Below are positions 16,897-46,711 of a stretch of DNA of 64,000 nt, piece after piece. The stretch is taken from the sequence record PZ445432.1, one strand, 5' to 3'. Each line of letters opens with the position of its first letter. Position 1 is the stretch's first letter. The position numbers and the translations under genes are program-made. The stretch is from a phage. Below the pieces are notes generated by a model. The model was not told where the DNA came from and ran no database searches. It was given only the letters and a program-made list of their open reading frames with translations.

Positions 16897-17091
16897 TTAG
16901 ACACTTAAAATACTTCTAATCTCTTCTATATACTTATCTACTTTTTTAGCATCTATTTTACTTAGTTTTCCTATATCAAAATCAGGATCAGTCAAATATC
17001 TTGCCATAAATTTTACTTGTTTAGCTGAAAGTTGACCCTTATTCCACTTTTTAATTTTACCATAACATACCCAATATTCTTTATTCATCAT
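16897..17091 (-). CDS. hypothetical protein
   Basis: 64-aa basic ORF. Confidence 0.4.
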   Translation of the reverse strand: MMNKEYWVCYGKIKKWNKGQLSAKQVKFMARYLTDPDFDIGKLSKIDAKKVDKYIEEIRSILSV

Positions 17092-17473
17092 TTAGTCCCG
17101 AAACATAAATCCCAACACGGTTTAATTGTTCTTTGGCTTCTTTGAGAATATCTGGAGTGTACTCCCAAATATCATCTTCCACCTGTAAAAGATGGGGCGA
17201 ACAACCGTCATCGGGCACACGACATATGGCCAAACCACGTGGATGGAACAAAGAGAAATTTAGTGCAACAATTAAACCCATAGCAGACAACTCATTCCAA
17301 TCCAATTCCCATTCCCTAGCGTAGCCTGATAGGAAAACACCAATACAGGGATCGTCTATTTGCTGCTCCGGAAAAGTAAAGGAGGCTTGTCTTACCCCCA
17401 ACCAACGTTGTAGCAGCTTCTCCGCACGCTTCACCAAACTAGGATCAATCTGACGCCAATATACTTGTTCCAT
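17081..17473 (-). CDS. hypothetical protein, paralog A of a tandem pair
   Basis: Shares PCIG ... W.ELD.MGL..ALN..LF.P with the adjacent 17483-17911 ORF. Confidence 0.5.
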   Translation of the reverse strand: MEQVYWRQIDPSLVKRAEKLLQRWLGVRQASFTFPEQQIDDPCIGVFLSGYAREWELDWNELSAMGLIVALNFSLFHPRGLAICRVPDDGCSPHLLQVEDDIWEYTPDILKEAKEQLNRVGIYVSGLNDE

Positions 17474-17482
17474 TGTGCCACC

Positions 17483-17911
17483 TTAGGCAGTTAAACCAGG
17501 AATTTGATAACCAAAACGACGAAGTTTCTGGATACCATCATTTACTTCTTCCGGTGAGTAAGACCAACCGTAATGTTCATCAACTTGAAAGCCAGGAGAT
17601 TCACTGGTTTTATAGTTAACAACAATACGGTGTTTATTGGGCATAAATAGCTTATAGTTTAATGCAAAAACCAACCCCATTTCATCCAGCTCTTTCCAGC
17701 CGACAATCTCTTCCAGACCATCCTCTACCTGCACAACTAGACCAATACACGGGGCCTCATCAATATCATCTTTAAAAGCAAAGGAGATTTCATTATTTTC
17801 ACACCATATTTTCAAGGAGTTAATAGTCTCATTATACAGGCTAGCTGGGAGAGTACGCCAGAAGTTAACCAAAATTGGATTAGCTTCTTTAGAGAATACA
17901 TTATTGAACAT
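17483..17911 (-). CDS. hypothetical protein, paralog B of a tandem pair
   Basis: Same conserved blocks as the 17081-17473 ORF. Confidence 0.5.
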   Translation of the reverse strand: MFNNVFSKEANPILVNFWRTLPASLYNETINSLKIWCENNEISFAFKDDIDEAPCIGLVVQVEDGLEEIVGWKELDEMGLVFALNYKLFMPNKHRIVVNYKTSESPGFQVDEHYGWSYSPEEVNDGIQKLRRFGYQIPGLTA

Positions 17912-17913
17912 AT

Positions 17914-18420
17914 TTACACCTTAAGTTGTTGTAGGGCTTTACACATTTCAAGATCTGGACTAAATTCTAGCATATAGCTAACAGCCATTAAATCTTGAAG
18001 GTTTATTCCAGTTCTACCGTTGACTATAACCGTTGGATACTGGTACATCATAGCACCAGCGTCATCCAGCACACACCAATGTTTGAGCTTATGCTTTTCA
18101 ACGAAGCGAAGAACAGAATTACCCCTAGATAGCCCACCACCAGTAAAATCCGTTGTACCAAGAAAACGATCAATAAGATCTAATCTGGTCATAATCTGAA
18201 CGTTCTCCATCTCATTCCTGACAGAGAACCATGAAGATACCCCAACAATCATTATTGGAGAAGGACGAATAAAGTCCTGAAAAGCCTTGAGAAGCGGCTT
18301 AAAAACCCAGTCACTTCCAAAGAAAATCTTTTCATCATCAGGTGCATGATGGTGGGAGATGCTCGAATTAAGCACCCCATCGATGTCTAGAAAAATAATT
18401 GGAGTATTACTTATTTCCAT
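17914..18420 (-). CDS. HAD-superfamily phosphatase-like protein
   Basis: N-terminal FLDIDGVL (HAD motif I, DxDx[TV]) and a later LDDAG segment. Confidence 0.55.
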   Translation of the reverse strand: MEISNTPIIFLDIDGVLNSSISHHHAPDDEKIFFGSDWVFKPLLKAFQDFIRPSPIMIVGVSSWFSVRNEMENVQIMTRLDLIDRFLGTTDFTGGGLSRGNSVLRFVEKHKLKHWCVLDDAGAMMYQYPTVIVNGRTGINLQDLMAVSYMLEFSPDLEMCKALQQLKV

Positions 18421-18589
18421 TTCTGTTCCTTTCTAAGAACGTATCATACTCAACCGTATCAACATATATGACACCATAGTCATCGGATTTATAGTCCATT
18501 TCCCATAGCTCACATCGATAGCACCAACTACCATCCGCCCATACAAATATATCATCGGGATGTGTATACACAGATTTAACTATGGACAT
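18407..18589 (-). CDS. hypothetical protein
   Basis: 60-aa ORF overlapping both neighbours. Confidence 0.35.
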   Translation of the reverse strand: MSIVKSVYTHPDDIFVWADGSWCYRCELWEMDYKSDDYGVIYVDTVEYDTFLERNRNGNK

Positions 18590-19404
18590 ATTTGTTTTCC
18601 CGGCATATAAGGTCTACCCTCTAGATGAGCTTCTACACGAGCAATAAAACCAGGATCACTGAAAGCATCTACTGCACCTTTACTCCAGTAAGGAATACCA
18701 CGATCTTCCAGTTGGTACATATCACTACGAGTCATACCTTGATAGCCTGGTTTCGACGCTAGGGCACTATCATAGTAGTTAACTACCATAAGTTTCGCAG
18801 CAGTCCGATTAAGAACAGGGAATAGTTCCCAGTAGAAGTTAATTACTTGGTTAGAGCAACCAACTACAACGATCATATCTTGACTGGTAATACCATCAAA
18901 AATATTGTACATTTCTGCGTACGCTGGAGCATGCTCACCAAAAAAGATTACATTAGGTTTAACCCATTTATAATCATCTGGGTCAATAGAGTTATACCCA
19001 ACATCAATAACCCGTTTATTACTACTATTGTAGCTATCAGCTACAACAACCTCTTTTAAATATCCGTGAATGTGCAGAATATCACTATGTGGAACGCCAG
19101 CACGCTCAATAAGGTCATCAACGTTGGTAGTCAAGTTTACTACTTGACCCGGATATTTCTTATACCATTCACCAATACGCAAGTGTGCAAGATTAGGTTC
19201 AACAGTTTCTAACTCTTCACGCCGCTTGTTGTAAAACATATGGGTTTTATGATAAAAGTTACCACGAAAGGCGTGAATATTACATACTTCTTCTAGATCA
19301 TAATCATCCCACAGTGCTTTACCACTAGCAGTATCGGTACGAAAAGCTCGTACACCACTTTCAACGCTCAAACCTGCACCGCTAATAATAATTAATCTAC
19401 GCAC
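18580..19404 (-). CDS. Sir2 (sirtuin)-family NAD-dependent enzyme
   Basis: SGAGLSVESGVRAFR, TTNVDDL, HG and PNVIFFGE sirtuin motifs; no zinc-ribbon CxxC pairs seen. Confidence 0.7.
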   Translation of the reverse strand: MRRLIIISGAGLSVESGVRAFRTDTASGKALWDDYDLEEVCNIHAFRGNFYHKTHMFYNKRREELETVEPNLAHLRIGEWYKKYPGQVVNLTTNVDDLIERAGVPHSDILHIHGYLKEVVVADSYNSSNKRVIDVGYNSIDPDDYKWVKPNVIFFGEHAPAYAEMYNIFDGITSQDMIVVVGCSNQVINFYWELFPVLNRTAAKLMVVNYYDSALASKPGYQGMTRSDMYQLEDRGIPYWSKGAVDAFSDPGFIARVEAHLEGRPYMPGKQICP

Positions 19405-28276: not shown

Positions 28277-29115
28277 TGCAACAATACTTAAAAATTTTGA
28301 CAGATGTAATTTTACTAGGTGAACCCCGTAATGACCGTACAGGAACAGGCACAGTTTCAATTTTTGATTCCTATGCTAAGTTCGATCTACGTGAGGGATT
28401 CCCTGCCGTAACCACTAAACGTCTAGCCTGGAAATCAGTAGTAGGAGAACTTTTATGGTTCTTGTCTGGTTCCACAAATCTTCATGATCTACGTGTATTC
28501 ACATTTGGGCGTGACGAAGGACAGTGGACCATCTGGACTCCAAATTATGAAGACCAAGCTATAAGTATGGGGTATGATAAGGGTAATCTAGGACCGGTAT
28601 ATGGTAAACAGTGGCGTAACTTTGGTGGGCGAGATCAGATTCTAGAACTTATTGAAGGACTCAAGAATAATCCTCATGGCCGCAGACATCTAGTTTCTGC
28701 ATGGAACGTAGCTGAACTTGATAAAATGGCATTACCGCCCTGCCACTACGGCTTCCAGTGCTATGTAAGTAACGATGGATACCTAGATCTTAAATGGACA
28801 CAACGTTCTGTAGATTGTTTCCTCGGTTTACCCTTCAATATTGCTAGTTATGCTTTATTAACGCATATATTAGCAAAACTGACAGGATTAAAACCTCGTT
28901 ATCTCATCTTTAGTGGTGGAGATACTCATATCTATAATGACCACATGGAACAGGTAGAAGAACAGGTAAAACGCAAGCCACGCCCTCTACCAACTCTAGT
29001 AATGCCAGAGTTTGTAGATCTTTACGATTTATTAGAAAATAATACGGCAGCTTGGTCCTTCCAGCTTGAAGGATATGATCCGCATCCGGCTCTTAAAGCT
29101 AAAATGTCTTCCTAA
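28276..29115 (+). CDS. thyA: thymidylate synthase
   Basis: Active-site PPCHYGFQCYV and a DRTGTGT-type N-terminal motif. Confidence 0.9.
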   Translation: MQQYLKILTDVILLGEPRNDRTGTGTVSIFDSYAKFDLREGFPAVTTKRLAWKSVVGELLWFLSGSTNLHDLRVFTFGRDEGQWTIWTPNYEDQAISMGYDKGNLGPVYGKQWRNFGGRDQILELIEGLKNNPHGRRHLVSAWNVAELDKMALPPCHYGFQCYVSNDGYLDLKWTQRSVDCFLGLPFNIASYALLTHILAKLTGLKPRYLIFSGGDTHIYNDHMEQVEEQVKRKPRPLPTLVMPEFVDLYDLLENNTAAWSFQLEGYDPHPALKAKMSS

Positions 29116-29121
29116 CTCAAA

Positions 29122-29145
29122 TAGCCCTTCGGGGCTATTATATTT
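29122..29145 (+). terminator. rho-independent terminator after thyA
   Basis: TAGCCC-TTCG-GGGCTA hairpin followed by a T-rich tract. Confidence 0.6.
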
Positions 29146-29154
29146 AAATTTCAT

Positions 29155-29183
29155 TTGCTTATTTAGTGAAATTTAAATATAAT
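29155..29183 (+). promoter_or_regulatory. sigma70-like promoter
   Basis: TTGCTT, 17 nt, TATAAT. Confidence 0.5.
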
Positions 29184-29208
29184 ATATTTTATAAATTGGA
29201 GGTATATA

Positions 29209-29490
29209 ATGATTTCAGCCAAAGAAGCTCAAGAACTTGCAGGATTAACAGAAGTACCCGCATTCCTAAAGTTTATAGAAGAAAAGATTGTAGAAGCTGC
29301 TAAGTCTGGAAATACAGAAGTAATTATTCGAGATAATCCTTACGCTAGGTGGCTATATAATCCTAGAGAAATGCCAGGAGCAGCTAAATCGGTACTAAAA
29401 ACCTTATCGGATAAGGGGTATCACCTCTCACAATACTACCGAGAAGCCGCCTTTGTAGACATGGGTCTTAAAATTAGTTGGGAGGTATAA
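29209..29490 (+). CDS. hypothetical protein
   Basis: 93-aa ORF with RBS GGAGG upstream. Confidence 0.5.
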   Translation: MISAKEAQELAGLTEVPAFLKFIEEKIVEAAKSGNTEVIIRDNPYARWLYNPREMPGAAKSVLKTLSDKGYHLSQYYREAAFVDMGLKISWEV

Positions 29491-29966
29491 TGTCGGTTTT
29501 CCACATTTACACAGATGGTGCTTGTAAGTCTAACCCAGGTCCAGGTGCTTGGGGTTTTATTGTCTATAATGATAACGACGATCGTTTAGGTTCTAAATCT
29601 GGTTATAATCCTAAAACTACAAATAATGAGATGGAACTCACAGCTATTGTAGAAGCTCTACGTTGGTCTGTTAAAAAAGATAATAGACCAATTGCTATCT
29701 ATACTGATTCTGCTTATTGCAAAAATGGCATGGAAAGTTGGATGTTTTCTTGGCAAAGGAAAGGCTGGAAGAAAGCAGATGGTGAAGTTCCCCTTAATCT
29801 AGAACTTTGGCAGGAAGCATTTAAATTAACACAGCAGTATATCAACTTTCATAATATTAACCCTACTTTTATTAAGGTTAAAGGACATTCTGGTATTAGT
29901 GGTAATGAAGCTGTAGACGCCTTATGTAACACAGTTATTACTGAGCAAGAACTTGCCGAGATGTGA
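29490..29966 (+). CDS. rnhA: ribonuclease H
   Basis: HIYTDGAC ... E ... IYTDS ... GHSG..GNE..D RNase HI pattern; ATG overlaps the upstream stop (TAATG). Confidence 0.8.
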   Translation: MSVFHIYTDGACKSNPGPGAWGFIVYNDNDDRLGSKSGYNPKTTNNEMELTAIVEALRWSVKKDNRPIAIYTDSAYCKNGMESWMFSWQRKGWKKADGEVPLNLELWQEAFKLTQQYINFHNINPTFIKVKGHSGISGNEAVDALCNTVITEQELAEM

Positions 29967-29986
29967 TAAGTAAATTAAAAATTCAA

Positions 29987-30015
29987 TTGCTTAAAGCCCT
30001 CTAATTTAGTATAAT
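29987..30015 (+). promoter_or_regulatory. sigma70-like promoter
   Basis: TTGCTT, 17 nt, TATAAT. Confidence 0.5.
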
Positions 30016-30042
30016 ATTCGTATTGAAAGTGAGGAGGGCTTT

Positions 30043-30327
30043 ATGAGAATTTATAACTCAAATTCATTAGGATTTAAACCATTGAGAAAACGTGCACAAT
30101 CACCTCGTCAAATAAGAAAGGCTAATATTGGTGAACCAGAAACACGTCTTCCACCTCCTCCAGAACAACGTTTAGTTTATCTGGACGAAGAATTAGCGGA
30201 ACGCGAAAGAAAAGCTCAAGAAGAGATTAAGCATAAGAAAATGTGTACTGCTCCAGCCTACTCCAAAGGGGCTTATCAATATATCTATACAGCCGAGGAG
30301 GCTAAAGATGCGGGGCGTAAAAAATGA
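30043..30327 (+). CDS. hypothetical protein
   Basis: 94-aa basic ORF with RBS GAGGAGGG. Confidence 0.5.
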   Translation: MRIYNSNSLGFKPLRKRAQSPRQIRKANIGEPETRLPPPPEQRLVYLDEELAERERKAQEEIKHKKMCTAPAYSKGAYQYIYTAEEAKDAGRKK

Positions 30328-30773
30328 AGATTACTGAATTTAAAGGTACTTATAGTTTTTTATCTAACTTTTATTTATCACCAATTACTTTCGAATATCT
30401 AAATGAGATATGGCATGCTGATACTGTAGAACATGCTTTTCAGGCTATGAAATCCGACCAAAAAGATGATGTAGCTCATGTGCTGCGCTCCCTAAATGCA
30501 GGAGTTGCCAAACGTAGAGGACGTAAATTAACTCTGCGCTCTGACTGGGATAAGGTAAAAGATGATGTAATGTTAGAGCTTTTACGGTTAAAGTTTGCAA
30601 TCCCTGATTTGAGGGACAAACTGTTAGCAACAAAAAATGCAACTTTGATCGAAGGAAATACCTGGGGAGATACATACTGGGGTGTTTGCCGAGGCATCGG
30701 GGATAATACTTTAGGAGTTCTTTTGATGCAGGTAAGGTCTGAAATTAAAAGAAGTTTACAGTTAATAAATTAA
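30324..30773 (+). CDS. NADAR-domain (YbiA/DUF1768-like) protein
   Basis: FLSNFY, HAFQAMK, GN.WGD..WG and LG..LM..R blocks as in YbiA/NADAR proteins. Confidence 0.65.
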   Translation: MKITEFKGTYSFLSNFYLSPITFEYLNEIWHADTVEHAFQAMKSDQKDDVAHVLRSLNAGVAKRRGRKLTLRSDWDKVKDDVMLELLRLKFAIPDLRDKLLATKNATLIEGNTWGDTYWGVCRGIGDNTLGVLLMQVRSEIKRSLQLIN

Positions 30774-30781
30774 AAATTCAT

Positions 30782-30810
30782 TTGCTAAACGCTTCAAATT
30801 CTAGTATAAT
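30782..30810 (+). promoter_or_regulatory. sigma70-like promoter
   Basis: TTGCTA, 17 nt, TATAAT. Confidence 0.5.
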
Positions 30811-30848
30811 ATACTTCATAAATTGATAAACAAAAAGGAAAATAAATA

Positions 30849-31364
30849 ATGGCTAAGCAGAAAAACGCAAAAACTCAAGCAGCAACTACAGTTAAAACTT
30901 TCCCTCAGACTGAGGCTAACCGCAAAGCTCGTCTGGAACGCCACCTGCGCAAGCATCCTACTGATGCTCAAGCTGCACAGGCACTGAATCGTCCGGCTCC
31001 GATTCGTCAAAAGCCGAAGGCTAAGAATGCTACTCGTTCTGTAACCCGCCTTGTGACCTATGTACAGGGTTATGGCCACAAATCTGTTCCAGTAACACTG
31101 AGTTTCAATGCTGGAGCTGAATTGTTCCCTCGTAATGGCATGGCCATGAAAGATTACGAGAAAGCAGTTAACCAGAAACGCAAGCCAACGGCAGATGTGC
31201 TTCGTGACACTCATGGACAGTTTGGCTCTGTTAAGCCAAATATCTTTGGCGTAGAGTATAGTAAAGATAGTGTTCGTGCTCTGTGTTACGGTGTAGGCAT
31301 TAAGTTCACTGGTGATTCTGCTCGTAAATCTGCTAAACCAGCTCGTAAACGTAAAGCGAAGTAA
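30849..31364 (+). CDS. hypothetical basic protein
   Basis: 171-aa Lys/Arg/Ala-rich ORF with host-optimal codon usage (CGT, CTG). Confidence 0.5.
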   Translation: MAKQKNAKTQAATTVKTFPQTEANRKARLERHLRKHPTDAQAAQALNRPAPIRQKPKAKNATRSVTRLVTYVQGYGHKSVPVTLSFNAGAELFPRNGMAMKDYEKAVNQKRKPTADVLRDTHGQFGSVKPNIFGVEYSKDSVRALCYGVGIKFTGDSARKSAKPARKRKAK

Positions 31365-31405
31365 TAGATAGGAGGGGCGAAAGCCCCTCATATTTTGGAG
31401 AAACT

Positions 31406-31642
31406 ATGCGTAATTTTGTAGTAAAGAATGATTTTAACCGTGCTAGCACCCATAAGTCCGCTAGAGATTATACACGACTTTCTAGTCATGAGGTAATGGA
31501 TACCTGTTATGAAGAGCTGGAAGATAACTGGAATGAATGGCCAGACTTTTCTATGGAAGAAAACTGGGATGTTAGTGAAGATATGCTTCCTGGTTTTAAA
31601 GACCCCAAGAAGTGGGAGTCTATTAAAGAGACAGCTCTTTAA
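31406..31642 (+). CDS. hypothetical acidic protein
   Basis: 78-aa ORF. Confidence 0.45.
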   Translation: MRNFVVKNDFNRASTHKSARDYTRLSSHEVMDTCYEELEDNWNEWPDFSMEENWDVSEDMLPGFKDPKKWESIKETAL

Positions 31643-31670
31643 TAGTTTTCTACACAATAAAGGATAAGTT

Positions 31671-32372
31671 ATGAAAGTAAAACCATTTGGTATGCTAGAT
31701 ATTGAATCTCTAGGAACTCCGGGGGATTGTGGTACTACTCATATCGCAATGCCTTCTTTCGCTTTTGTGGCTATGCATGGGATTGATAAAGACCCTGACT
31801 TAGTATTTGCTACTTTGGATGTGCAGGATCAGCTTAATTCTGGTGCCAAAGTTACAGCATCTACTCTAGCATTCTGGATGGATCAAGCTAAAAATAGCCC
31901 GTCTGCTATTCACATTATGGAAGCTATGAAGGAACGTAATCCAAAACTGATTGCCTTCCAAAATGGTAAACATCATTGCACTACTAAATTAGGCTCAAAC
32001 TATGCTGCCTTCTCTATGGCTCAAAATATTATGGAGTTGGCTCTAGGCGAAAATGCTTTGTATTATGGCAATGGCCCAGAGTTTGATATGACTATCTACT
32101 CTGCAAACACGTTCCATGCTGGAACCAATGAAGAGGTAGTTCCGTGGAAATTCTGGAATTTAGGCAATGTTCGATCTCTTCGTAATCTCTGGATGCAAGC
32201 GGGTTATAGTTACAAAGATCTAGAGGCTGAAGGTATTAGCTGGGCAAAAGCTAAAATGGAGAAGATGGACACCATTCGTTATGGGATCTATCCGGTTAAG
32301 CACGACCCAGCATTCGATGCCCTAGTTGAGGGCTATTGTGTTGCAGCTATGATCGAAAAAATGAAAATTTGA
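31671..32372 (+). CDS. hypothetical protein
   Basis: 233-aa ORF; an N-terminal LDIES segment resembles a DEDD exonuclease motif but this is unsupported. Confidence 0.45.
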   Translation: MKVKPFGMLDIESLGTPGDCGTTHIAMPSFAFVAMHGIDKDPDLVFATLDVQDQLNSGAKVTASTLAFWMDQAKNSPSAIHIMEAMKERNPKLIAFQNGKHHCTTKLGSNYAAFSMAQNIMELALGENALYYGNGPEFDMTIYSANTFHAGTNEEVVPWKFWNLGNVRSLRNLWMQAGYSYKDLEAEGISWAKAKMEKMDTIRYGIYPVKHDPAFDALVEGYCVAAMIEKMKI

Positions 32373-32443
32373 TTTGCTTCCGGCTCCAAAATTCTGTATA
32401 ATATATTTATAAATTTGAGAAAACAATAAAAGGAAAAACAAAT

Positions 32444-32626
32444 ATGCCAGTATCTAAAAATGTTCGTAAAAATGGTAAGAAAGCTACTCGTAATCTGGGT
32501 ATCCGTCGTATGGCCGAACGTCAATCAGGTGTCCAGAAAATCTTTGATCTGTTAAATCGTGCTAATCCTAAAATTGATAACAGTAATGATACTGTTCTGC
32601 GCACTCTGCTGGCAATTGGTCTGTAA
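32444..32626 (+). CDS. hypothetical small basic protein
   Basis: 60-aa ORF downstream of a promoter-leader cassette. Confidence 0.45.
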   Translation: MPVSKNVRKNGKKATRNLGIRRMAERQSGVQKIFDLLNRANPKIDNSNDTVLRTLLAIGL

Positions 32627-33760: not shown

Positions 33761-34582
33761 ATGGGTAAATTACAAAAACAAATACTACCATATATAGATT
33801 ATATCCGAGAAATTATAGAGTATAATCCCTATACTGGTAAATTATTCTATAAGCCTAATAAATATAAGAATAAAACTTGGCATACTTTATATGCTGGGAG
33901 AGAAATATGTAGTAAGAACTCTGATGGGTACATCAGAGTTAGTTTGCTCTTAGATAATAAACCCACAATTATTTATGGACACCGAATAGCGTGGCTCCTT
34001 CACTATGGGGAGGAACCACCTGCTATGATTGATCATATAAATACTATACCGTGGGATAATAGAATTATTAACCTAAGAGAGACAAATTTTAAGTTAAACA
34101 GACTTAATACTAACAAAACGGTAGGTGTAGAGCTGCTGCCAGAAGGATTTGTGTACAGCATTACATTAGGTGAAAAGTTTTTTGTATCCCCCGGCTTCCC
34201 CACTTTCGAACAAGCTAAAGTGGAAAGAGAAAAACTAGTAAATGGTTTATGTAATGCAGAAATTGGGAAGCAGACCAATATTCTAATAGACGATGTTAGA
34301 GATTTACCTGAAATGTCCATTATTTGTCGTACAGTTATAGGTGCGCTGGAACTATCAGATGTGTTTAGTTTCACAGGATCCTATTTATTTATGGACTCAG
34401 ATTTAGGAGATTCAGAGGTACAAGGAAAAGATTTATTAGATCATATACTATTATTAGGTCAAAGACCCCTAAAAGTGATTCTAGTAACATCTAATCCTGT
34501 TGACGCAGAGTACATGAGAGGTACTCTTACGTCTTATGGATACCGAGAAAATCCCAATAGATTAGAATATGATCTATTTTAA
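33761..34582 (+). CDS. HNH homing endonuclease
   Basis: GHRIAWLLHYGEEPPAMIDHINTIPWDNRIINLRETN HNH motif. Confidence 0.7.
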   Translation: MGKLQKQILPYIDYIREIIEYNPYTGKLFYKPNKYKNKTWHTLYAGREICSKNSDGYIRVSLLLDNKPTIIYGHRIAWLLHYGEEPPAMIDHINTIPWDNRIINLRETNFKLNRLNTNKTVGVELLPEGFVYSITLGEKFFVSPGFPTFEQAKVEREKLVNGLCNAEIGKQTNILIDDVRDLPEMSIICRTVIGALELSDVFSFTGSYLFMDSDLGDSEVQGKDLLDHILLLGQRPLKVILVTSNPVDAEYMRGTLTSYGYRENPNRLEYDLF

Positions 34583-46271: not shown

Positions 46272-46711
46272 TAAAAAACTTTATTAGTTCTCTATGGCAA
46301 GGTAAATGGTATATCCTGGGAGCAGGTCTAGCGATAGGCATCGGATTCGGTGCTTATCACTTAGTAGATAAAGTGGAGACTTTAGCAGGAGATCTTGCGG
46401 TAGCTACTAAAAAGATTTCTTCCCTAGAAACTTCCCTCAATAAGGTGAAAGCTGAAAGCGAACTTCGTGAGACTAGAATGAATCAGTATTTCACAATGAA
46501 TAATATTTCGCAAGCAGATCTAGACAAAAAGATTAAGCAGTTAGATAAAGCTCTTAGTCGCCAAGATATTATAGCTGCAAAGCCTGGATTGGTAACATTA
46601 ATTGCTAAAAAGCAGAGTAAAGAATTTGAGGAGAGATTAGCATGTCTTTCTGGAAGTGTGGAATACTGCTCGCAGCCGCAATCACAATCACAGGCTGTGC
46701 ACAAGAAATAA
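46268..46711 (+). CDS. putative i-spanin
   Basis: N-terminal transmembrane helix then a coiled-coil periplasmic domain; the next ORF is embedded in its 3' end in another frame. Confidence 0.45.
   Translation: MIKNFISSLWQGKWYILGAGLAIGIGFGAYHLVDKVETLAGDLAVATKKISSLETSLNKVKAESELRETRMNQYFTMNNISQADLDKKIKQLDKALSRQDIIAAKPGLVTLIAKKQSKEFEERLACLSGSVEYCSQPQSQSQAVHKK

Follow-up and report, generated by a model that had tools for sequence, protein, structure and literature searches.

Background

Guanine-ADP-ribose (G-ADPr) is hydrolysed by NADAR-domain enzymes, and residues E88, K95 and D171 are essential in one of them, the DarG1 of E. coli C7 (PMC11543638). All NADAR families reversed G-ADPr in vitro, and neither YbiA nor T4 gp30.3 gave uninfected cells protection from DarT1 (PMC11125620). 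The phage protein T4 gp30.3, also named AdfN^T4, strips ADP-ribose (ADPr) from DarT1-modified DNA in vitro and is impaired by the substitutions E36A and K43A.

The system closest to the one described here was found by Johannesman, Awasthi, Carlson and LeRoux (Nat Commun 2025, PMC11825919), who searched the phages of the BASEL collection for NADARs and gave the name AdfN^Bas32 to the NADAR encoded by Bas32 and Bas33. In that article, AdfN^Bas32 expressed ectopically neutralises the DarT1 toxin in uninfected E. coli, brings RB69, T5 and Bas25 back to full titre on DarTG1 cells, and leaves the plaquing of T5 on DarTG2, a thymidine modifier, unchanged. The article also reports that AdfN^T4 requires another T-even factor and fails against DarT1 in uninfected cells, whereas AdfN^Bas32 succeeds.

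Here we describe the Bas33 gene, bas33_0070. The sister phage Bas32 (IrisVonRoten) carries this gene at the corresponding locus, between flanking genes that the two phages share. The Bas33 gene very probably encodes an AdfN (anti-DarT factor, NADAR type), an orphan antitoxin-like counter-defence enzyme directed against DarT1. This finding is correct but already known: the gene has been named, and its function characterised through the Bas32 allele. The genomic anatomy reported below, that is, the cassette, its promoters and the gap in T5, adds to the account in the text of PMC11825919.

Gene and genomic context

The window, by which we mean the whole 64,000-nt stretch of phage DNA that was analysed, matches Escherichia phage HildyBeyeler (MZ501074.1) with 100% identity over positions 29000–32500. 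This Tequintavirus (T5-like) coliphage is Bas33 in the BASEL collection. Subtracting 32482 from a coordinate of the MZ501074.1 record gives the window coordinate used throughout. The adfN-type NADAR gene is an ATG-start open reading frame (ORF) at 30324–30773 on the plus strand that encodes 149 aa, with the stop codon counted in the coordinates. The features of the locus are as follows.

29987..30015, plus strand: promoter-like site (TTGCTT, 17-nt spacer, TATAAT) upstream of the T5.090 homolog
30043..30327, plus strand: T5.090 homolog, 94 aa (phrog_4593, function unknown), whose stop codon TGA overlaps the NADAR ATG
30259..30774, plus strand: accessory cassette relative to T5, from the alignment of T5 with Bas33 and Bas32
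30324..30773, plus strand: adfN-type NADAR gene (bas33_0070, QXV80081.1), from the ORF, the Pfam NADAR match, the AlphaFold2 (AF2) model, Foldseek and the published function
30782..30810, plus strand: promoter-like site (TTGCTA, 17-nt spacer, TATAAT), counterpart of the T5 promoter P-H207

Upstream, the gene order runs nrdA, homing endonuclease, nrdB, dihydrofolate reductase, thymidylate synthase, a 93-aa ORF, RNase H, the 94-aa ORF and then NADAR; on the 3' side follow a DUF7022 protein and an Rv2179c-like exonuclease. This order agrees with the first-pass annotation of the DNA, which had placed the gene next to RNase H, thymidylate synthase and the nrd genes. No ADP-ribosyltransferase gene adjoins bas33_0070, whose immediate neighbours are the T5.090 homolog (without a Pfam hit) and the DUF7022 protein. 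The NADAR gene is therefore an orphan and, being phage-encoded with no cognate toxin gene adjoining, has the arrangement that defines the AdfN class. With a GC content of 36.7% against 38.8% for the window, it is not compositionally foreign. Two minus-strand ORFs, at 30445–30675 and 30476–30697, were set aside as shadow ORFs; both lie wholly within the plus-strand NADAR frame, which strongly matches a protein family and evolves under purifying selection.

The same first-pass annotation had assigned the gene to a nucleotide-metabolism operon, a wording that proved too strong. An ATGA overlap joins the 94-aa upstream gene to the NADAR gene, so the two are probably co-transcribed and translationally coupled. 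The promoter-like site at 29987–30015 lies in a stretch identical to T5 and inside a promoter annotated in T5 at 46337–46411; its first hexamer matches at just three of six positions, and our promoter scan therefore omitted it. From this correspondence, it is likely the promoter of a two-gene unit ending with NADAR. The site at 30782–30810 begins the next unit (DUF7022 gene, 30849–31364) and marks the right border of the NADAR cassette, and no intrinsic terminator or terminator-like hairpin was found from the end of NADAR to this promoter. T5 itself carries separate annotated promoters in the thy–rnh, rnh–T5.090 and T5.090–T5.089 intervals, and the promoter stretches of the last two, the only ones aligned, are conserved in the window. 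Judged from these promoters, NADAR would close a short unit of two genes and not be a member of one long nucleotide-metabolism operon. We take the T5 promoters at this locus to belong to the early class, and expression of the NADAR protein probably begins early in infection, driven by the promoter of the T5.090-like gene.

Alignment of T5 with Bas33 and Bas32 delimits the cassette sharply. Positions 30331–30774 (about 445 bp) are missing from T5 as a clean gap, the preceding 30259–30330 (about 70 nt, the 3' end of the T5.090 homolog) are diverged from T5, and identity to T5 returns exactly at the P-H207 promoter (30782–30810). T5 is sensitive to DarTG1, according to PMC11825919, and thus serves as a natural control, its absence of a NADAR gene fitting its sensitivity. 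Among 433 phage records matching the locus, 95 carry it in full with the NADAR gene, or about 22% of T5-like phages, and the cassette is missing from about 78%; in a separate count, 96 records encode a NADAR at least 95% identical. A discrete cassette with this distribution offers a simple genomic marker that would predict DarTG1 resistance in phage therapy and biocontrol.

Structure and ligand pocket

The protein matches Pfam PF08719, NADAR (DUF1768), with E=6.3e-22 and a score of 79 bits (gathering cut-off 35.1); the match spans protein residues 9–142 and profile positions 9–163 of 163. It also matches phrog_1017 (E=8.4e-45). An AF2 model built from a 40-sequence alignment has a mean pLDDT of 97.4 and a pTM of 0.91, and contains strands at 21–25 and 28–32 together with seven helices of at least four residues, which is the alpha-helical core with small beta hairpins alongside that characterises a YbiA-like fold. 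When the model was compared with the PDB by Foldseek, the significant matches were NADARs only, including E. coli YbiA (2b3w; TM 0.82, probability 1.00, 37% identity) and the Phytophthora nicotianae NADAR (PnNADAR) in complex with ADPr (8bau; TM 0.76, probability 1.00). The match to the G. lovleyi DarG1 (8BAT) was poor (TM 0.52, E 0.94). The protein is a bare NADAR core without an N-terminal extension.

Its key residues are S14-N15-F16, E36, K43, R67, W75, K79, E110, D116 and W119. In PnNADAR the residues that contact ADPr are E43, K50, R79, W89, R93, E125, D130 and W133 (Schuller 2023, PMC11543638), and we mapped them onto the bas33_0070 protein by HMMER and MAFFT alignments, as listed here.

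PnNADAR E43: E36
PnNADAR K50: K43
PnNADAR R79: R67
PnNADAR W89: W75
PnNADAR R93: K79
PnNADAR E125: E110
PnNADAR D130: D116
PnNADAR W133: W119

Near E36 the phmmer alignment is off by three residues, and the assignment was settled by the E-x6-K spacing and by MAFFT. The conserved serine, glutamate and lysine of the substrate channel and the diphosphate- and ribose-binding residues, as defined for NADARs in PMC11543638 and PMC12945103, are all present. Across 40 homologs of 48–60% identity, no variation is seen at S14, E36, K43, E110, D116 or W119, and very little at W75. The assignment to the YbiA/NADAR family made in the first-pass annotation is thus borne out by the Pfam score, the fold and the ADPr-contacting residues, and the structure prediction and active-site comparison that it had proposed as a check yielded a NADAR fold with the full set of ADPr contacts.

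The residue of the last strand that is diagnostic of NADAR families is a glutamate, E110, aligned with the glutamate of YbiA ('LVE-HTENDAYWG') and with PnNADAR E125. A glutamate at this position places the protein in the YbiA family in the sense of de Souza and Aravind; the corresponding residue is aspartate in DarG1/BC4488 and histidine in T4 gp30.3-type NADARs (PMC12945103). The protein does not belong to NCBIfam NF053876, 'NADAR family anti-phage protein', scoring 45 bits against a cut-off of 240. A PADLOC scan returned a weak, uninformative match to the candidate model PDC-M42C (27.8 bits) and none to a DarG model.

Comparison with characterised NADARs

With DarG1 (the BC4488 family, represented by G. 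lovleyi 8BAT and the E. coli C7 NADAR) the protein shares conserved core glutamate and lysine residues, a presumed guanine-ADPr hydrolysis and, for the published Bas32 allele, DarT1 neutralisation. DarG1 is about 230 aa long with an N-terminal beta-beta-alpha extension and a catalytic aspartate, whereas the bas33_0070 protein has 149 aa, no extension and a glutamate. Membership in DarG1/BC4488 was rejected on this glutamate, the length of 149 aa, a profile match starting at residue 9, the lack of an adjoining DarT gene and the TM of 0.52 to 8bat.

AdfN^T4 resembles the Bas33 protein in its NADAR fold, in being an orphan anti-DarTG1 factor and, presumably, in its guanine-ADPr specificity, and E36 and K43 fall at the same numbered positions in both. 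T4 gp30.3 nevertheless shows no BLASTP similarity to the bas33_0070 protein (E=1.2), and T4-type NADARs have histidine in the last strand where the Bas33 protein has E110; on these two grounds membership in the T4 gp30.3-type family was also rejected. T4 AdfN and the Bas33 NADAR, alike in how they work, are independent acquisitions, a conclusion likewise reached in PMC11825919.

The P. nicotianae NADAR (8BAU, ADPr complex) shares the fold, the complete ADPr-contact set and the catalytic glutamate, E125 corresponding to E110. It is a eukaryotic protein of 28% identity, with extra N-terminal and internal extensions that the bas33_0070 protein lacks.

E. coli YbiA (2B3W) is the closest solved structure, at TM 0.82, 37–41% identity and phmmer E=2.8e-15, and both proteins are bare-core NADARs with a last-strand glutamate. 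The two differ in activity: YbiA gave cells no protection from DarT1 (PMC11125620), whereas AdfN^Bas32 does protect them (PMC11825919). The fold by itself is thus no guide to in-vivo competence, and a comparison of net charge and pI with YbiA yielded no explanation for the difference. A protective and a non-protective enzyme of 37–41% identity make AdfN and YbiA a good system for finding the in-vivo specificity determinants of NADARs. Their settings also differ: in the E. coli chromosome ybiA is flanked by rhlE and dinG, in a region described in the literature as a LexA-controlled operon, and bas33_0070 belongs to a phage early-region cassette.

The likeness to YbiA raises the reading, also offered in the first-pass annotation, that the enzyme is a housekeeping-type N-glycosidase destroying reactive intermediates of the riboflavin pathway. 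The same idea lies behind three names used in GenBank, 'N-glycosidase', 'GTP cyclohydrolase II' and 'swarming motility protein'. YbiA is indeed the best solved-structure match by sequence and by fold, the last-strand glutamate is of YbiA type, and the riboflavin N-glycosidase equivalog TIGR02464 is the top NCBIfam match; its 66.8 bits, however, do not reach the curated threshold of 73.7. The 43.5 kb of phage examined contain no annotated riboflavin gene, and none was seen among the genes that recur next to 80 cellular homologs. A dispensable cassette is what one would expect of an accessory anti-defence gene, not of a metabolic requirement, and a DarT1 phenotype has been demonstrated directly for the Bas32 allele (PMC11825919). 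We regard a riboflavin role as very unlikely to be the main function, and this part of the earlier proposal falls away on the TIGR02464 score, the lack of rib-gene context and the accessory nature of the cassette.

Activity against DarT1

The reading we prefer, an AdfN directed against DarT1, draws on the fold, the conserved ADPr contacts, the orphan setting, the purifying selection and the DarTG1 sensitivity of T5, which lacks the gene, and on the published experiments, which strictly concern a 98.7%-identical Bas32 protein expressed ectopically. In the deposited sequences, the Bas32 protein (bas32_0066) agrees with that of Bas33 at 147 of 149 residues, the differences being T9A and K104E. 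Positions 9 and 104 are both polymorphic among orthologs and lie outside the mapped set of ADPr contacts, and the Bas33 allele (T9, K104) also occurs in SSP1 and Lindwurm. We infer that the Bas33 allele acts like the Bas32 allele despite the two substitutions. A literature search for data on native Bas33 or on DarTG returned nothing beyond PMC11825919. The first-pass annotation had suggested repair of DNA modified by host toxins such as DarT. By ectopic expression of the Bas32 protein (PMC11825919), this holds for DarT1, which modifies guanine, and does not hold for DarTG2, which modifies thymidine. The locus is a clean, already published case of a lytic phage whose orphan antitoxin-like enzyme reverses an immune modification that damages DNA. 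As a separate observation, PMC11825919 calls the Bas32 and Bas33 proteins identical, and the GenBank sequences differ at the two residues named above.

In the mechanism we propose, DarT1 of the host DarTG1 system would attach ADP-ribose to guanine in phage DNA and block replication. The 149-aa NADAR-fold ADP-ribosyl glycohydrolase would bind the ADP-ribose, with K43, R67, W75, K79 and W119 predicted to hold the diphosphate and E36, E110 and D116 the distal ribose, and would cleave the ribose–guanine N-glycosidic bond to restore unmodified DNA. Thymidine-ADPr made by DarT2 would be left in place. We infer that the Bas33 protein acts by enzymatic de-ADP-ribosylation and not by binding the toxin, and Bas33 itself would be expected to need the NADAR gene on DarTG1-bearing hosts.

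A soluble substrate has been put forward for phage NADARs in general by Iyer et al. 2022. Applied here, the enzyme would degrade soluble derivatives of ADP-ribose, for example immune signals or RNA-repair by-products, and not modified DNA, and the early region does hold, elsewhere, a gene with a HAD_SAK_2 'RNA repair' domain and a Sir2 gene. These two genes are not adjacent to NADAR, however, and T5 has both without a NADAR. The proposal is also older than NADAR biochemistry; the target of DarT1 is DNA, and AdfN^Bas32 cancels both DarT1 toxicity and DarT1 defence (PMC11825919). We consider a soluble substrate improbable.

The Sir2 gene is also the basis of another reading, in which NADAR would partner with the phage Sir2-like protein by reversing or editing ADP-ribosylation that Sir2 writes.

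18580–19404, minus strand: Sir2-family gene (PF02146, 87 bits, profile match)

The early region of this phage does contain both genes. A distance of 11 kb separates them, though, they lie on opposite strands and in separate transcription units, and T5 retains Sir2 (T5.102) without NADAR, so that the two genes are inherited independently; furthermore, AdfN^Bas32 is active in uninfected cells without a phage partner (PMC11825919). A partnership of this kind appears extremely improbable to us. Of the 'ADP-ribose theme' that had been suggested for NADAR and Sir2 together, the Sir2-family gene itself stands, but the link between the two is unsupported, given the 11 kb, the opposite strands and the retention of T5.102 alone in T5.

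Substrate range

Within the preferred reading, DarT1 need not be the sole or main natural target of the Bas33 NADAR. The enzyme might mainly reverse other nucleic-acid ADP-ribosylation, such as cytidine-ADPr (C-ADPr) or guanosine-ADPr (G-ADPr) on RNA or DNA, by non-DarT toxins, whether pierisin/ScARP-like or YarT-like, with DarT1 reversal as one activity among these; we hold this to be possible but doubtful. It adds to the DarT1 explanation and does not exclude a DarT1 role. E110 is a glutamate, as in the 'NADAR' and 'YbiA' families, and glutamate-type NADARs cleared C-ADPr as well as G-ADPr, on DNA and on RNA alike, whereas DarG1 (aspartate) and T4 gp30.3 (histidine) cleared G-ADPr only (PMC12945103). 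G-ADPr on RNA is likewise reversed by NADARs (PMC11833690). The catalytic E110, being neither the DarG1 aspartate nor the T4 histidine, thus possibly gives a broader range than that of T4 AdfN, and the surroundings of Lachnospiraceae-type homologs (below) suggest a general anti-ADP-ribosylation set on mobile elements. Against this, the sole activity demonstrated, for the Bas32 allele, is against DarT1 (PMC11825919). By analogy with the glutamate-type enzymes, we advance only tentatively that the T5-group NADAR could be a broad-spectrum eraser, acting also on C-ADPr and RNA G-ADPr and protecting the phage from ADP-ribosylating defences other than DarTG1. If so, whether a T5-like phage can infect hosts with such defences might be predicted from whether it carries the 445-bp cassette.

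Selection and origin of the cassette

The NADAR gene is under strong purifying selection. Pairwise, six T5-group orthologs differ by 8–17 synonymous and 0–3 non-synonymous changes, and dN/dS stays within 0–0.06 for 14 of the 15 pairs; only Bas32 against EC142 lies higher (dN/dS 0.28), a value that rests on two differences in total. In the Epseptimavirus vB_SenS_UTK0009, a 60%-identical NADAR occupies another slot, between rnh and the T5.090 homolog, suggesting that a NADAR gene entered this neighbourhood a second time, independently.

PMC11825919 places AdfN^Bas32 near two archaeal NADARs. A motif-seeded scan of GTDB species genomes gave bacterial sequences as the closest matches, at 46–54% identity, from Mollicutes, Bryobacterales, Lachnospiraceae, Pseudomonadales and Planctomycetes, and archaeal matches of up to 44% identity. 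Since the nearest matches are bacterial, going by scan identities, the 'archaeal' placement may reflect a small reference set. In about 11 Lachnospiraceae-type genomes, NADAR homologs of 47–49% identity lie beside LPD11, YodL, Macro, DUF3990/ART-PolyVal-like and NAD-dependent-ligase-like genes, the last identified by eye. Such a combination of genes is characteristic of the 'polyvalent protein' modules that mobile elements carry, and it agrees with the clade having a role in conflict.

The naming of these genes in GenBank is uneven. The Bas33 gene (bas33_0070, QXV80081.1) was deposited as 'hypothetical protein', and the T5-group NADAR gene is wrongly named in most records, as 'swarming motility protein', 'GTP cyclohydrolase II' or again 'hypothetical protein'; 'N-glycosidase' is a further name in use.

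NADAR variation and cassette content in the early region of T5-like phages

The Bas33 NADAR protein was compared with its Bas32 allele (window 30324-30773 versus L002:1825-2274, the Bas32 locus), and the GenBank proteins were identical at 147 of 149 residues, differing by T9A and K104E. The two proteins have been described as identical (PMC11825919). Positions 9 and 104 are both polymorphic among the T5-group orthologs.

Beyond these orthologs, a second NADAR gene was found in an Epseptimavirus, Salmonella phage vB_SenS_UTK0009 (L005:3489-3938), and is only 60% identical. Its slot differs from that in Bas33: it follows rnh directly and precedes the T5.090 homolog. The low identity and different slot point to a separate insertion event, in which a NADAR gene entered the same early-region neighbourhood independently.

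The same region as the NADAR cassette holds another small presence/absence cassette, a stretch of about 275 bp lying 3' of the DUF7022 gene in Bas32 and several other relatives but missing from Bas33, where the corresponding site falls between window 31364 and 31406. In Bas32 this stretch contains a 216-bp ORF, bas32_0068 (L002:2925-3140).

T5-like phage entries in GenBank give the NADAR gene a variety of names: "swarming motility protein YbiA", "GTP cyclohydrolase II", "N-glycosidase", "DUF1768 domain-containing protein", "NADAR family protein" or "hypothetical protein". The published name AdfN is absent from all T5-like phage records listed.

Sir2-family and other genes in the window

17081-17473 and 17483-17911, minus strand: bas33_0051 and bas33_0052, DUF7415 (PF24187)
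17914-18420, minus strand: bas33_0053, HAD_SAK_2 (PF18143, 74.8 bits)
18580-19404, minus strand: bas33_0055, Sir2 family (PF02146, 87 bits)
31372-31389: GC-rich hairpin GAGGGGC-GAAA-GCCCCTC, just 3' of the DUF7022 gene
31671-32372, plus strand: bas33_0073, Rv2179c-like 3'-5' exoribonuclease domain (PF16473; phrog_255 "exonuclease")
33761-34582, plus strand: bas33_0076, annotated as an intein-containing hypothetical protein (intein at record 66249-66755)

We found bas33_0055 to be a genuine Sir2-family member. Since T5 also has this gene, as T5.102, bas33_0055 was inherited independently of the NADAR cassette. The bas33_0053 protein matched HAD_SAK_2, the HAD domain found in "Swiss Army Knife" proteins for RNA repair, and profile searching with this Bas33 protein gave no Sir2 match. 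Its T5 counterpart, identified by equal length and gene-order position, is T5.105 (L003:7589-8095), which the T5 annotation names "Sir2 (NAD-dependent deacetylase)", the second gene there with that label. Genes bas33_0051 and bas33_0052 are neighbouring paralogs with two DUF7415 repeats apiece.

Both the Bas33 and Bas32 records call bas33_0073 a "putative metallopeptidase", a peptidase label that, given the PF16473 and phrog_255 matches, is probably wrong. The hairpin scored as terminator-like on either strand in our scan.

Bacterial NADAR homologs

NADAR homologs with 47-49% identity occur in Lachnospiraceae and related genomes (L024-L027, L047, L048, L053, L061, L063, L069 and L085), adjoining LPD11, YodL-like, Macro and DUF3990/ART-PolyVal-like genes as well as a 684-aa ORF that by eye resembles NAD-dependent DNA ligase. 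Such a combination of genes is reminiscent of the "polyvalent protein" modules that mobile elements carry.

Close homologs were also present in at least four copies on each of two single bacterial chromosomes, the Bryobacterales chromosome OZ241991.1 (L007, L008, L013, L022) and OZ241908.1 (L023, L029, L052, L081). This multiplicity, together with small flanking ORFs common to some of the copies, points to either a repeated element or several prophages.
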